DNA of 14,446 bases, from UHGV virus genome UHGV-1642993. One strand, 5' to 3'. Position 1 is the first letter of the stretch; every line of letters begins with the position of its first letter. A model generated the notes under the pieces. It saw only the letters and a list, made by a program, of their open reading frames with translations. It was not told the DNA's origin and searched no databases. The stretch comes from a virus. Shown here piece by piece: positions 7,712 through 13,710 of the stretch. A program made the translations under genes and the position numbers.

Positions 7712-9916
7712 TTACTGCTGTGGTTGTTGCTGAGTTGATTTTTGCAGGATGCTGCTGATGTCCATGCGCTGCGCATGGCCCTGTGCCTGACTTTTCAGGA
7801 CAAGCTCTGCATCAGCACGGGCATTATCTCCTTGCTGTTGCTGGAACTGTCCGAGCAGTTTCAGCGCCTCACGGATATCAGATTTTTGCTGGCTATCGGC
7901 AGATGCGAGGATTTTCACAACATTTGCCGCAGCAACCTGAGCATCCGTCTGTGCCTGGAATGCTTTAACCTGAATGGCTGCTTGTTCGTTCTGCGCTTTC
8001 TGCAATTCAGCCTGACCAGCAAGAAGCTGACCTTGCGCAGCAACCATAGCCGGATCTGGCTGACTGGCCTGTTGTTGTTTCGCCTGCTCAACCATCTGCT
8101 GTTCTTCTGGTGTTCTCGGCTTAATAACGCCAGACAGAAGCAACTGATTGCGGTTGTATTCTTTAAGGTCGTCCATCCCTTCGCCGTCCATATTGTCGAG
8201 AATCATCGACGATACAAGGTCATGCTTCGGCGTTCCTGGCGGGATAAGTGCCAGCATGGAAAGCAACGACTTAACCGTTGCATCACGGCGAGTAGCGAAC
8301 GACTGACCGACATCGACAGTCACTTCATAGTTACCCTGCGAAAGGTCGTTAAGCGCGATAACCTTCCCTGTCTGACGGTCAACCACTTCACCAGTCATCA
8401 GCGCCACGTCATCGCTGCCATCCTCATTAACGATGCGCATTGGCGTATCGCTGCCATAGACTTCACGAGCCATAGAAAGCCACACGACGCCAGCACGGCG
8501 CATGGATTTAGCCATGTTGTCCATGTAGATATAGGACTGCGTGTCCATCCGGTTAAAGATGCTATCAACGGTATCGGTAGCGACGTTGCTCGGCATGTTC
8601 TCAAGCTGCGACGCACCTGTAATTTGCTGAATAGCCGTTCCGGTGTACTGCAATAGCCCGGCAAGAGCAGGAGGCATTTGTGTCGGAGGTGTCCAGCCAG
8701 CAACCTGAGCCTCTGAAATGACCGTTCCGTTTTTGTCCTTCTTGCTGGTCATGGGAAGAACTGCAGGTCTTTTCTTATTCCTCTCTGCCCAGTGATTCAT
8801 TAATGGACCGGGAATGAAATCAACATCCACGATAGGAATGCCATCACCGCCAGCCTGAGTAGCATTATCTGCAATCATGGAAACCATCAGGTTCTCAAGA
8901 CGCTGTGCATCCATCGCTTTTGCTGCGTGGCCTTCGATTCGCTCCTGATTATCAACAAATGAACGACGCCCATATACCGGGATGAGAGGAATATGTTCGC
9001 CCGGAATACGCTTCGGTTCTTCCAGCCATTCAGCGCCAGACAGAAGACCGCAATAAACTCGGCGTTTCTTCACCGTTCGCTCGCCAATCAGTTCGAATGC
9101 ACCATCGGTCAGCTCGTCGACAATATCTTTGATTTGCTCTTCATCATAGATTGCCGTTTCTCCGCTGACAGGGTTACGCCATGCTGTGAGCTTCACCTTC
9201 TCTATGCGGACTTCGTAGTAGCGTCCAACATAGATGGCATCAGGCGTTGACCAGTCATATTGAGTACCAGTGTCATCACGAGAAAGACTTGCCGCGATGG
9301 AATCAGGGTATTCAGCCTCGAACGCTTTATGCGTCATGGAGAACATTTCCATAGCCCACATAGCATCAGAGCGGTCATATTGCTTGCTGTCCTGATCGAA
9401 GAAAACGCATGTCGCTGGGTCGTAAACAGGAAGAAGGCTGATGCGTCGCTGCTCGTTACTCGGATCCATTTCATCTTCGTAATCGGCACACATGCGGAAA
9501 CAACCGAATCCGCCCGTTACAGCATCATCAAATGCGTTATCACACGCTTCGCCACCGGATGTTTCCTGATAGTCAGCGCGGAATTTGCCGTTCATCTTTT
9601 CGGCTAACGCTTCCGATGCCTTATCGTCCTTAGGCCTGAATTTAACGCTGATGCGATTCTGTCGATACTCGCCAATGATGCGATCACATTCACGGGCAAT
9701 CTTATTCAGTTCAAAGCGCGGGTAATGCTCAAACCTGCCTTCATCAAATGAGTAACCAGCGTTTGTGCTGCCTTCCCACTGTGCGCCGGACACCCGGACG
9801 AAACGTTGAGCCTCAATAATCTGCTCACGCATATCCTTCGTTGCTGACCAGGCATTATCAAAGTTGCACAGCACCTTGCGATGCCAGTCAGTCATCTTTC
9901 TATCATCAGCCATCAT
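7712..9916 (-). CDS. Portal protein (P22 gp1 family, diverged; about 734 aa)
   Basis: Motifs shared with the P22 portal as recalled (KRRRVY, GEHIP..PV.G, PRTPEEQQ, DPAMV.AQGQLLAGQAEL.KAQN helical barrel); the ATG at 9916-9914 overlaps the terminase TGA stop (ATGA) and is preceded by GGAG; the track's TTG at 9928 is less likely. Confidence 0.9.
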   Translation of the reverse strand: MMADDRKMTDWHRKVLCNFDNAWSATKDMREQIIEAQRFVRVSGAQWEGSTNAGYSFDEGRFEHYPRFELNKIARECDRIIGEYRQNRISVKFRPKDDKASEALAEKMNGKFRADYQETSGGEACDNAFDDAVTGGFGCFRMCADYEDEMDPSNEQRRISLLPVYDPATCVFFDQDSKQYDRSDAMWAMEMFSMTHKAFEAEYPDSIAASLSRDDTGTQYDWSTPDAIYVGRYYEVRIEKVKLTAWRNPVSGETAIYDEEQIKDIVDELTDGAFELIGERTVKKRRVYCGLLSGAEWLEEPKRIPGEHIPLIPVYGRRSFVDNQERIEGHAAKAMDAQRLENLMVSMIADNATQAGGDGIPIVDVDFIPGPLMNHWAERNKKRPAVLPMTSKKDKNGTVISEAQVAGWTPPTQMPPALAGLLQYTGTAIQQITGASQLENMPSNVATDTVDSIFNRMDTQSYIYMDNMAKSMRRAGVVWLSMAREVYGSDTPMRIVNEDGSDDVALMTGEVVDRQTGKVIALNDLSQGNYEVTVDVGQSFATRRDATVKSLLSMLALIPPGTPKHDLVSSMILDNMDGEGMDDLKEYNRNQLLLSGVIKPRTPEEQQMVEQAKQQQASQPDPAMVAAQGQLLAGQAELQKAQNEQAAIQVKAFQAQTDAQVAAANVVKILASADSQQKSDIREALKLLGQFQQQQGDNARADAELVLKSQAQGHAQRMDISSILQKSTQQQPQQ

Positions 9917-11409
9917 CCAACTCCGCAAGGTATGTTGTAGCTTGAGTAATCAATCTCTTTAGGATCTTTGATGTCTCGCATCTGTATTGCAAAACGCCTC
10001 ATCATGTAGCCATAGCGAACAGCAGAAAGGATGTCGTCATTTAGCTTGACGATCTTCCCGTTCTCATCGCGGTGATACAGACGAAACTCTTCAAAGAATG
10101 GCTCGCAGGTGTTAAATACCTTGAAACGACCGTCGAGCATCATGTCGCGTATCTCTGCTATCCCGGGTTCGACCGCATTACCTCCATCAGGCCATGTTGC
10201 ATGATCTGGCAACATGTCGAACCCAGCTTCGGCGTATTGTTCCTTGAGCTGAGCGCCGCCTCCCTTTTCGTGCTGATGCCCGTCATGAGGCCAAGCCGTA
10301 GGGGTGTTTTTGCTCCATGCTTTAACAGCACTCCATGCCTCTGTCGCCTTCTTCTGTTTGGCCTTCCAGACGCGAGAAAGATAAATCACGTCCTCGTCTT
10401 TATCCCACCAAAGCTGGATATGTGCCTGTGGGTGATCCCATCCGAAGTCCATTGCATTGATGACGTAGAAGTGATCAGGACACTCGAACGGCTGACACTT
10501 AATCGTCTCTTCCGGTATCTGGAAGATTCGACCGCTACCCATCGTAGGAATACCGCGAGCACGCGCCTCTCTCTCGTGCTCGGGATAGGATGCGATGATT
10601 TGCTCTTTCTGCTCGTCGGTATAGTGCTCAGCATCATAGATGGTCATGTTGACCACTTTCTGCGACTTGCTGGGATTCTTCAGGAACTTGGTAACAACGT
10701 CAGACATCCCCATCAGCGGGGTAAACGTCAGAATTGAGAATTGCCCGTATTTGTTGGTACGGGTAAGACCTTCGCCATAAATGCTGTATGGTGGCTCTTC
10801 GTCAAACCACACGCCGTGGATTGTGTCACCCTGCCAGCGAGCACGGCCTTGAGAGTATGGTTTGAAGTAGCAGATTGAAATGCCATCTTCAACGCCATCA
10901 GCCGTGTGATGCTTAACCAGAAGATGATCAACAAGGTTCGGAAAGAAAGGAGACTTCTTCCAGCTAATGATGTCCTCTTTCGGTATGGAACCGTAGCCAG
11001 GCTCGTCATTCTCTTCGATACGACCGCACAGGATGCGTTGAGTCGTTTTGGTTACAGTCTCGTTTGTCTCGCCACCAATCCAAAAGACAACAGGCTCATA
11101 GAAACGCTTACCTTTCCACTCACCGCCATATTTACCATCAGCAGGATAGCCTTTTGTGCCCGGATAACGCCCTGTAAGGTGAAACGCGACTTCAGCAGCA
11201 CCAGTAAATGACTTACCAAGCTGGTTACCAGCCATAAAACATCGCTCTGGATAGTCATGTCCGGCGTCGATGAACTCACGCTGTTTGCTGTATGGCGTAA
11301 ATTCATATAGCAGGTGTGTGTTCCGGTAGTTCTCTTCTTCTTCGAGTAGCTCGAGCAATTCGATTTGCTCTTCGTCGCTCAGGTTATCAAGAATCGCGTC
11401 CAGTTCCAC
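9913..11409 (-). CDS. terL: Terminase large subunit, P22 gp2-type (498 aa)
   Basis: N-terminus [37 protein letters not shown] and Walker A segment AGNQLGKS match P22 gp2 as recalled; GTG start at 11409 with AAGGAG upstream; overlaps terS by 23 nt. Confidence 0.95.
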
Positions 11410-11910: not shown

Positions 11911-12153
11911 TCATGCTCCGGTGGTGAACAGGTCTAACGCTTCCTTCGATTTACGTACCGCTTCGATAGTGCGGGTCGTGATATCTGAATTAGCGCCGCC
12001 TGACTGGAAGTGAATTTTGAATAGCTCAAGCTTCAACTCGTCAGTACCAATGAACTGAAATGCTTCCTCTGCGGCTGCGTTCTGGTTCATGACCAGTTTG
12101 TAAATCTCTAACTGGAATTTCTGTTCTTCAGTCATGGGAATAATCTCTGCCAT
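11911..12153 (-). CDS. Small hypothetical protein (80 aa) directly upstream of terS
   Basis: ATG at 12153 with GGAG 8 nt upstream; predicted helical, acidic; same position as the small conserved ORFs that precede gene 3 in P22-like phages. Confidence 0.5.
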   Translation of the reverse strand: MAEIIPMTEEQKFQLEIYKLVMNQNAAAEEAFQFIGTDELKLELFKIHFQSGGANSDITTRTIEAVRKSKEALDLFTTGA

Positions 12154-12256: not shown

Positions 12257-12514
12257 CTACTTCGTTTTTGCTTCCGCTCTTTTACGGCGGCGCTCTTCTT
12301 TCTTCTCGGCGTTTGCCATGTCCATGAATGCCTGCATGATCGAGTTCCTCATCATGTAACTGACAAAGTGATGATTGACGCAGCCGTTGAGACGGAGTTG
12401 CTCGCCAAACTGATCAACCGAGGCCAGCACTTGCATCATGTCCTTCTCACCTTTCATGAACTCAGAGAAGTCGCGCCCCGCTCTGGAAGCGCATTCAATG
12501 ACGCGATTATTCAT
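12257..12514 (-). CDS. Small hypothetical protein (85 aa) with a basic C-terminal tail (KKEERRRKRAEAKTK)
   Basis: ATG at 12514 overlaps the upstream TGA stop (ATGA coupling); no recognisable domain. Confidence 0.45.
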   Translation of the reverse strand: MNNRVIECASRAGRDFSEFMKGEKDMMQVLASVDQFGEQLRLNGCVNHHFVSYMMRNSIMQAFMDMANAEKKEERRRKRAEAKTK

Positions 12515-13062
12515 CCTGGAAGCCCTGGGATCGTAATCTGCAGCTGGTTAGCCAGGGTATTAATCTCAGCGACCAATACAGGCTTCGTATAACGCCATGC
12601 AGCAAGTCCTTGTCCGCAGAAGCTCGCCATGTCCTTCTTCTGGTCAAACTCATGGCACTTCATGTTGAGCTGCGCACTTAAGCTGTTGCGATGCTGAAGC
12701 TCTCCGGTGAAGTAGTCATCGAGGACCTTATATGCCGCGTACTTGAAACCGGGGTTTAACCAGGCAGCATAATCGTAAGCAACAAACTTCCCGCCATAGG
12801 TTCCGCCGTGTACGCCGCGGGCAGTAAAAACCACAGATTCGTGGTTTTTCTCCAGCTCGGCCAGGAACTCTTTGGTCTGCTTGTTTCGCAGATAGTGGTA
12901 AGGCGATTCAGCATCACTTTTGCCACTGGCTTTCCACATATCGGTGAGGCAGATCATGCCGTCTTCTCCGACACGGATTGGTTGATTGAAGAGGGTTAAT
13001 GATTTCATTTCGCTGATACCTTTTGGTGGTTGAGCCTGTTCTCGTAGATATGGGCAGCCCAA
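12511..13062 (-). CDS. KilA-N-like domain protein (183 aa from TTG at 13062; 165 aa from the internal ATG at 13008)
   Basis: N-terminal segment IRVGEDGMICLTDMWKASGKSD....YLRNKQTKEFLAEL fits the KilA-N DNA-binding pattern as I recall it; first ORF after the lysis-cassette terminator. Confidence 0.5.
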   Translation of the reverse strand: MGCPYLREQAQPPKGISEMKSLTLFNQPIRVGEDGMICLTDMWKASGKSDAESPYHYLRNKQTKEFLAELEKNHESVVFTARGVHGGTYGGKFVAYDYAAWLNPGFKYAAYKVLDDYFTGELQHRNSLSAQLNMKCHEFDQKKDMASFCGQGLAAWRYTKPVLVAEINTLANQLQITIPGLPG

Positions 13063-13157
13063 GAGCGGTCAGCGTTACCACTGCCCTATCTCAAGCTCTA
13101 CCCCGAAAGGCTCTTGGTTGATATGCGCACGAGAATGCGCGGGTTTACTGCAGGCGT

Positions 13158-13181
13158 AAAAAAGCCCCGCTATTGCGAGGC
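13158..13181 (-). terminator. Intrinsic terminator at the end of the lysis cassette, overlapping the Rz1 stop codon
   Basis: Minus-strand transcript: GCCUCGC-AAUA-GCGGGGC (7-bp stem including one G-U pair; the Rz1 UAG stop lies in the loop) followed by UUUUUU. Confidence 0.5.
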
Positions 13182-13493
13182 TCTTGATGATTCGATTTTC
13201 CTGATTGCTGCCTTATCCAGATTGCACTGCCCTAGCGCCGTATAGAGCTGAGCGTTCAACTCCAGACTTGCCTGCCACGTGAACGGAACCGCCATTCCGG
13301 GGATCGGCGTGTCTGCTGTCAGGTCAGCGCTTATCGGCACCACCGGGGCCGGAACGTAAACTGTTTTCGTATTCCCGCAGGCTGTCAGCAGCGGCAGAAG
13401 GAACAAGCTGGTTAGCACACGGATCGCCTTCAAGCGCCTGCCTGATGTAGACAATGCGCGTCTCGCCTTTTTTGGCCAGTTCGTTCTTTGCAT
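13170..13493 (-). CDS. Rz1: Rz1-like o-spanin (outer-membrane lipoprotein), in the +1 frame overlapping the 3' part of Rz
   Basis: Lipobox LLPLLTAC followed by a Pro-rich mature region (VYVPAPVVPISADLTADTPIPGMAVPF). The ORF's ATG at 13493 would give a 39-residue leader; an in-frame TTG at 13433-13431 gives a typical 19-residue lipoprotein signal (MKAIRVLTSLFLLPLLTAC). Confidence 0.7.
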   Translation of the reverse strand: MQRTNWPKKARRALSTSGRRLKAIRVLTSLFLLPLLTACGNTKTVYVPAPVVPISADLTADTPIPGMAVPFTWQASLELNAQLYTALGQCNLDKAAIRKIESSRASQ

Positions 13494-13710
13494 TCTGGGT
13501 AGCCTGTGAGATGTCGCGGATGAGGTTCATCGTGGTGATCACGTTTCTGGTGATCGCCTCCGATGTGTCTGCCCTGACCGTCGCCTTATCGCGCTGGTCT
13601 TTGTAGGTGATGGCGTTGTCGCGGTAGTGGTTTACGAATAAAACCAGCACGCCGATTAACGCCAGCACCAGCAACTGTAGCCAGTAACGCTTAACCAGCG
13701 CGCCAATCAC
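13324..13710 (-). CDS. Rz: Rz-like i-spanin (128 aa)
   Basis: N-terminal signal-anchor TMD (WLQLLVLALIGVLVLFV) then a charged periplasmic helical domain; GTG start overlaps the lysozyme TGA stop (GTGA); directly downstream of the lysozyme gene. Confidence 0.75.
   Translation of the reverse strand: MIGALVKRYWLQLLVLALIGVLVLFVNHYRDNAITYKDQRDKATVRADTSEAITRNVITTMNLIRDISQATQNAKNELAKKGETRIVYIRQALEGDPCANQLVPSAAADSLREYENSLRSGPGGADKR

Follow-up and report, generated by a model that had tools for sequence, protein, structure and literature searches.

The last two genes of the lysis cassette of the virus genome UHGV-1642993 encode a spanin pair, the i-spanin Rz and the o-spanin Rz1, whose reading frames overlap. 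This pair closes a canonical holin-endolysin-spanin cassette in the late region of a P22-like prophage, and it is an ordinary one: family, layout and function have been catalogued before, and the databases contain close copies. The identity of the genes, their architecture, the start of Rz and the pattern of evolutionary constraint are directly supported. For Rz1 several in-frame start codons compete, and comparison of natural variants suggests, with about even chances, that the TTG codon at 13433 is the main start. Whichever start serves, the mature o-spanin stays the same and only the length of the precursor and the expression are affected.

The window, that is the whole stretch of 14,446 nucleotides analyzed here, carries the lysis genes on the minus strand, contiguous and head to tail in the order holin, lysozyme, Rz and Rz1 (Table 1). 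The initial annotation had placed an Rz/Rz1 spanin pair at 13170-13710, and the matches to phrog_214, phrog_456 and PF23793 bear this out. Both ORFs are real genes and not chance open frames. A search of NCBIfam gave no match for either spanin.

Table 1. Features of the lysis cassette and of the candidate starts of Rz1 (positions in the window; start candidates are numbered in codons from the lipobox Cys)
Feature	Position	Strand	Evidence
Holin, 101 aa, LydA-type, first gene of the cassette	14439-14134	minus	Pfam PF16083 E 2e-21; phrog_785 E 2e-38
Soluble T4-type (GH24) endolysin/lysozyme, 146 aa	14147-13707	minus	PF00959 Phage_lysozyme E 1e-50; phrog_7 E 2e-72
i-spanin Rz, 128 codons/aa, GTG start	13710-13324	minus	phrog_214 'Rz-like spanin' E 5e-35
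o-spanin Rz1, ORF from the most upstream ATG, 107 codons	13493-13170	minus	Pfam LysC PF23793 52.6 bits; phrog_456 E 3e-24
Upstream ATG -38, 38-residue leader	13493-13491	minus	83/83 clade members; Shine-Dalgarno weak, -2.5 kcal/mol
Second TTG -25, minor candidate, 25-residue leader MSTSGRRLKAIRVLTSLFLLPLLTA	13454-13452	minus	Shine-Dalgarno -4.6 kcal/mol
AGGCAGG, Shine-Dalgarno-like, 4-10 nt upstream of TTG 13433	13443-13437	minus	partly made of the Rz Arg codon AGG
TTG -18, favoured Rz1 start, 18-residue leader MKAIRVLTSLFLLPLLTA then Cys	13433-13431	minus	TTG in 81/83 clade members; Shine-Dalgarno -5.9 kcal/mol
Dual-coding stretch, 110 nt, Rz 3' end and Rz1 5' end (TTG start)	13433-13324	minus	codon-position diversity and pN/pS switch
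Lipobox LTAC, Cys codon 13379-13377, Gly at +2	13388-13377	minus	read directly
Intrinsic terminator	13158-13185	minus	11-bp stem, Rz1 TAG in the loop, then six U

Outside the lysis cassette the window has the make-up of a P22-like late region, with a KilA-N/Rha-like gene, terminase, portal, scaffold, coat, adaptor, needle and ejection proteins. The KilA-N gene, which also has an ORF11CD3 domain and is Rha or anti-repressor-like (minus strand, 12511-13008), separates, together with two small ORFs (12257-12514 and 11911-12153), the lysis cassette from the small terminase gene; the three form a moron-like insertion within the P22-like late operon. In the ORF listing the portal gene (7712-9928) begins with TTG and the large terminase gene (9913-11409) with GTG, both on the minus strand. 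The TTG of the portal gene has no Shine-Dalgarno match (+0.1 kcal/mol) and the true start is therefore probably an internal codon.

Direct folding of the terminator hairpin at the end of Rz1 gave an MFE z of -2.0. A consensus terminator scan did not pick up this site and reported only weak sites within coding sequence. The segment 13102-13183 (80 nt with the Rz1 stop codon and the terminator) is about 90-93% identical to the lambdoid phages HK97, HK022, HK75 and those of the mEp type, and in some of the records of these phages a terminator is annotated at the equivalent of 13102-13183. These phages have nothing else in common with the lysis cassette of UHGV-1642993.

The GTG codon of Rz (13710-13708) lies on the TGA stop codon of the lysozyme gene (13709-13707), a GTGA overlap that can be read directly, and the reading frame ends with the stop codon at 13326-13324. 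It had been proposed that Rz starts at this GTG, and the homologues support it. Of 35 distinct homologues with the same Rz N-terminus, 21 have GTG and 14 have ATG at the aligned codon, and in all of them the start reads RTGA across the lysozyme stop; for the lysozyme the G/A switch is silent, its codon being Ser in either case (TCG or TCA). Since the alternation of GTG and ATG is a classic signature of a start codon, the start of Rz at GTG 13710 is well supported. The Shine-Dalgarno match of this codon is weak (-1.9 kcal/mol), which agrees with translational coupling to the lysozyme stop. The translation shows an N-terminal hydrophobic segment, YWLQLLVLALIGVLVLFV, as an 18-residue stretch after KR, and a single periplasmic Cys in the motif GDPCAN. 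Against PF10828 (DUF2570) Rz scored 16.4 bits (E 0.0095), below the gathering score of 26.6; the DUF2570 label is nonetheless given by PGAP to closely related E. coli copies of Rz.

The putative N-terminal transmembrane segment of Rz (13620-13710, compared with L001, L006 and others) is a swapped module: homologues carry either VIGALVKRYWLQLL... or MSRLTAIICAFVICLL... at this place. The breakpoint lies directly before the conserved NHYRDNAI, and each type is paired with a different upstream lysozyme junction. We read this swap as mosaic recombination within the gene.

Relative to Rz, Rz1 uses the +1 reading frame (13710-13433 = 277 = 3x92+1), and its TAG stop codon is found at 13172-13170. All candidate starts (13418-13493) lie inside Rz and the end of Rz1 lies beyond it, which makes the pair an overlapped one; Rz1 reaches 154 nt past the Rz stop, close to the 150 nt first estimated, and is thus not embedded as in lambda. 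The mature lipoprotein from the Cys (13379) to the TAG comprises 69 aa. As initially noticed, the leader from TTG 13433 ends in an LTAC lipobox (MKAIRVLTSLFLLPLLTA directly followed by the Cys). This sequence agrees with the consensus [LVI][ASTVI][GAS]C with a residue other than Asp at +2 (PMC6139136). All aligned homologues have the Cys, and the lipobox is nearly invariant among them. The Gly, not Asp, at +2 leads us to expect sorting of Rz1 to the outer membrane. The periplasmic Cys of Rz1 sits in GQCN, one per mature subunit.

The match of Rz1 to the LysC profile PF23793 is well above the gathering score of 27 and covers profile positions 2-67 of 69. SpaninDB places o-spanins in one family at an identity of at least 40% across at least 40% of the periplasmic domain (PMC6139136). 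With 51% over 68 of 69 residues to the Mu protein and 56-59% to those of SfV and SfIV, Rz1 can be assigned to the 'Mu' o-spanin family of SpaninDB; in the same comparison the APSE phages reach 46-49% and ENT47670 39.7%, just under 40%. RefSeq names the homologues Rz1-like lysis system protein LysC and DUF2570 protein. Copies of the mature o-spanin at 85-100% are abundant in IMG/VR contigs and in genomes of Enterobacter, Klebsiella, Kosakonia, Citrobacter and E. coli, and near-identical copies are common in prophages of Enterobacter, Klebsiella and E. coli.

Four in-frame codons are candidates for the start of Rz1, namely ATG -38 (13493), TTG -25 (13454), TTG -18 (13433) and GTG -13 (13418). 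By a simple duplex calculation the clear genes of the window have Shine-Dalgarno duplexes of -5.2 to -7.8 kcal/mol, and the value at TTG 13433 lies inside this range. At ATG 13493 the Shine-Dalgarno sequence is degraded to ACAGG in the clade of the window. TTG is a weak initiator. It is the sole start codon possible in the +1 frame at position -18, because the Rz residue there is hydrophobic (codon xTT). Lipoprotein signals following a rule of the PROSITE PS00013 type have the Cys at positions 15-35 and a Lys or Arg among residues 1-7. The starts 13433 and 13454 pass under this rule and 13493 and 13418 fail.

The GTG at 13418-13416 was rejected as a start; its leader would be only 13 residues long and without charge, and the codon is present in only 22 of the 83 clade members. 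We also rejected a Tat signal in the stretch SGRRLK. The twin Arg arises incidentally from the Rz motif YIRQA and is absent in the SfV-like clade, and we take the residues after it not to match the Tat consensus. No conserved RNA structure was found across the region from the ATG to the TTG, where the fold is no better than that of shuffled sequences (z = -0.38).

For the analysis of natural variation 138 loci were gathered, anchored on the Cys and analyzed in both reading frames, the clade of the window comprising 83 distinct sequences. In this clade the leader between the ATG and the TTG has a pN/pS (Nei-Gojobori) of 0.23 in the Rz frame and of 1.23 in the Rz1 frame, bearing in mind that pN/pS is confounded in overlapping frames and that the sequences share ancestry and recombine. 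The latter value is close to the 1.68 of a non-coding control (+1 frame upstream), and diversity peaks at the third positions of Rz (0.155 vs 0.148-0.237 in the Rz-only part). The leader between 13493 and 13433 thus evolves as Rz-only DNA in the clade, which supports TTG 13433. The part encoding the signal peptide is under dual constraint (pN/pS 0.45 in the Rz and 0.62 in the Rz1 frame), and in the mature overlap Rz1 dominates (4.28 in the Rz frame vs 0.09 in the Rz1 frame). The C-terminal tail of Rz, ...LRSGPGGADKR (13324-13376), evolves freely where mature Rz1 is tightly conserved, in agreement with a published remark on i-spanin C-termini diverging within shared DNA.

At synonymous positions of Rz the diversity falls from 0.277 at -32 to -27 to 0.063 from -26 on, lower than in every 8-codon window of the Rz-only region (minimum 0.092). 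The ATG at 13493 lies in a second island of 11 codons (-43 to -33), where the Rz-synonymous diversity is 0.052 against a background of 0.188 and a null minimum of 0.106; both islands are short (8-11 codons). In IMG/VR, 102 contigs with both flanks of TTG 13433 exact have the TTG and none has a different first or second base. This invariance does not discriminate between the readings of the start, because both rivals predict constraint there.

The TTG at -18 is missing in only two lineages of the clade, and each of them has gained an ATG. In the Kosakonia sequence (L097) the site reads TGC ATG, with the ATG at -17 arising through an E-to-H change in Rz; in the Pseudocitrobacter sequence (L093) both the Shine-Dalgarno element and the TTG are lost and a new ATG is found at -31. 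An Enterobacter kobei lineage has TTG ATG at the start site. The TTG at -25, on the other hand, is lost in four clade members (TTA twice, TCG and TTT) with no compensating start, and all four keep the TTG at -18. In the Entomohabitans sequence (L113) the frame is interrupted by stop codons at -41, -33 and -18, and the sole start is an ATG at -16 preceded by AGGAG; a leader of 16-18 residues is therefore sufficient in this o-spanin family. Relatives with the Rz motif VYIRxA have a start at -15 to -18 when the Arg codon is AGG (the clade of the window, L100, L114 and L110), and none there when it is CGN (L117, L102 and L137). This co-occurrence, four against three lineages, is suggestive only.

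In a sister clade around SfV the long leader is of a different kind. In 17 sequences (L101-L128; also L140:793-909, SfIV) the 20-residue extension homologous to 13493-13434 contains the motif RSHW[ST]HREPR. From -35 to -25 the Rz frame has a pN/pS of 4.42, as against 0.14 for the Rz1 frame, and a change of Rz from ESQR to DASG costs the Rz1 frame only an S to T exchange. The ATG at -38 is preceded by GGAGG with a 9-nt spacer. These comparisons clearly argue that the long leader of the SfV-like clade is translated and selected. Here the n-region of a signal peptide is more strongly selected than the i-spanin codons that overlap it. In GenBank, SfV and SfIV are annotated with the long form (ATG -38). 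In SpaninDB the lengths for SfV (112 aa) and APSE-1 (109 aa) correspond to 38-residue leaders and that for SfIV (93 aa) to an 18-residue leader, the length and the coordinates of the SfIV entry disagreeing with each other.

A first rival to TTG 13433 has the ATG at 13493 as the only or the main start of Rz1, with a 38-residue leader and a long, highly basic n-region, the TTG being a mere Leu codon. The ATG is retained throughout the clade; in most of the diverged relatives, too, it is kept as xAT|G although the Rz dipeptide changes (NA, HA, DA, HG, DD, DE, ND, HD). The low synonymous diversity around it and the selected, GGAGG-preceded leader of the SfV-like clade point in the same direction, as do the sequence L117, which has no other canonical start, and the fact that most leader polymorphisms in the clade of the window are K/R exchanges. 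Calling this leader implausible, as was done initially, was therefore too strong. In the clade of the window, however, the leader is without constraint at the protein level, the Shine-Dalgarno sequence is reduced, and the new ATGs in the lineages without the TTG would be needless if the ATG at -38 sufficed. Moreover, the Cys falls outside the PROSITE range, and the curators of SpaninDB mark leaders of 35 residues as 'too long'. We consider this reading unlikely. Possibly both starts are used, giving a long precursor (ATG 13493) and a short one (TTG 13433) from one mRNA and an identical mature lipoprotein. This would account for the separate island of synonymous constraint at each site with freely varying codons in between and for the conservation of both codons in the clade, and the SfV-like clade likewise keeps the ATG at -38 and one or more ATGs at -16/-15. 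But the support is purely comparative and comes from short islands, a benefit is not obvious with identical mature products, and the spanin literature searched held no precedent, so that we regard dual initiation, too, as rather improbable.

A start at TTG 13454 would give an acceptable leader with two Arg in the first seven residues and the Cys at position 26, and the synonymous constraint begins almost exactly there (-26/-25). Yet the uncompensated losses of this codon in clade members that keep the TTG at -18 and the Shine-Dalgarno duplex, weaker than at 13433, speak against it, and the constraint from -26 to -19 can equally be the initiation region of TTG 13433; we judge this start very unlikely. 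TTG 13433 as the probable start, as it had been put forward, thus stands as the best single guess given its Shine-Dalgarno element, the unconstrained upstream leader and the compensating ATGs. It is not proven, and the codons TTG 13454 and GTG 13418 had been overlooked. The literature was also searched for TTG starts of Rz1, and no relevant precedent came to light. The clade of the window looks like a lineage whose ancestral long-leader start has lost its Shine-Dalgarno sequence and the constraint on the peptide, the internal Shine-Dalgarno sequence plus TTG now doing the work. The ATG at 13493 may still be firing, and the extension of the n-region could be translated and yet evolve almost neutrally. 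A wider proposal, which we hold to be quite unlikely, is that this o-spanin family has two conserved initiation sites, an ATG at -38 for a long and a site at about -18 for a short leader. The motif in the SfV-like clade would then suggest a sequence-specific role of the extension, e.g., in the timing or throttling of export, and the clade of the window would be in transition, with the role lost and both forms made.

The annotated starts of Rz1 are no guide to the true start because the database calls are inconsistent. Homologues of the o-spanin are annotated from at least six different codons with lengths of 57 to 167 aa. The lysC gene of E. coli MLI104K1 (PGAP, L003:1918-2091, 57 aa) starts with a GTG after the lipobox and encodes neither a signal peptide nor the lipidated Cys, and an NCBI cluster of 87 aa already begins at the TTG equivalent to 13433. 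The practical value of our analysis lies in annotation, as in some entries for this o-spanin the signal peptide is missing and in some even the lipidated Cys. The selected leader of the SfV-like clade is a small testable lead on the export or regulation of spanins; it is only mildly new and lies outside the window.

For the function of the pair we propose the following scheme, in which the membrane steps (anchor, export, lipidation and pairing) follow established spanin biology (PMC6139136). [quoted passage not shown] Rz1 is read in the +1 frame from within Rz, in the clade of the window most likely from TTG 13433 via AGGCAGG with a canonical 18-residue leader. After export by Sec it is predicted to be lipidated on the Cys at 13379-13377, cut by signal peptidase II and sorted to the outer membrane. 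[quoted passage not shown]

Among the 528 spanin pairs of SpaninDB 182 are embedded, 228 overlapped and 118 separated (PMC6139136). The comparison with curated spanin architectures, which had been suggested as a check, therefore places the layout found here in the largest class. The contrast drawn with lambda is correct in so far as Rz1 of lambda is fully embedded in Rz and that of the window is not, but it is not noteworthy, since the overlap of lysB and lysC in P2 has been the textbook arrangement for decades (PMC3091744). With lambda the pair shares the +1 frame and, as predicted, the function and the topology of the subunits, an inner-membrane protein with a transmembrane domain and an outer-membrane lipoprotein; no sequence similarity between the spanins of the window and the lambda families was detected. 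The lysC gene of P2 begins within lysB, in the +1 frame, and continues past the end of lysB (PMC3091744). The family PF23793 matched by our Rz1 is named after LysC, and the likeness to P2 noted here consists of the layout and this family name. In contrast to Rz1 of the window, which ends in a terminator, lysC of P2 runs into the tail gene R.

Enterobacter phage vB_EclS_CobraSix (gp78/gp77, L001) is 95% identical at the DNA level in the spanin region and has the same TTG, ATG and Shine-Dalgarno sequence. It differs by a mosaic exchange of the putative N-terminal transmembrane module of Rz, and its RefSeq o-spanin (L001:2727-2963, 78 aa) starts at a TTG 9 codons before the Cys with only LFLLPLLTA as leader. 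SfV, SfIV and related enterobacterial prophages encode an o-spanin of the same family with the same geometry of overlap and with the ATG at -38 and the TTG at -18 at homologous positions (SfV/SfIV), and Rz of SfIV is 33% identical to Rz of the window over 110 aa. Unlike the clade of the window, the SfV-like clade has its leader motif under strong purifying selection and a GGAGG Shine-Dalgarno sequence at the ATG. Mu (also D108) has the same overlapped +1 layout downstream of the endolysin, and the identity to its o-spanin (Mu_55) extends across the whole mature lipoprotein. The i-spanin gp23 of Mu shares the C-terminal motif around the Cys (46% over 35 aa), the rest being not detectably similar. 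In contrast to the window, Mu has a SAR endolysin and a releasin, and its annotated o-spanin (MMQKKK...) begins with an ATG located 28 codons upstream of the Cys.
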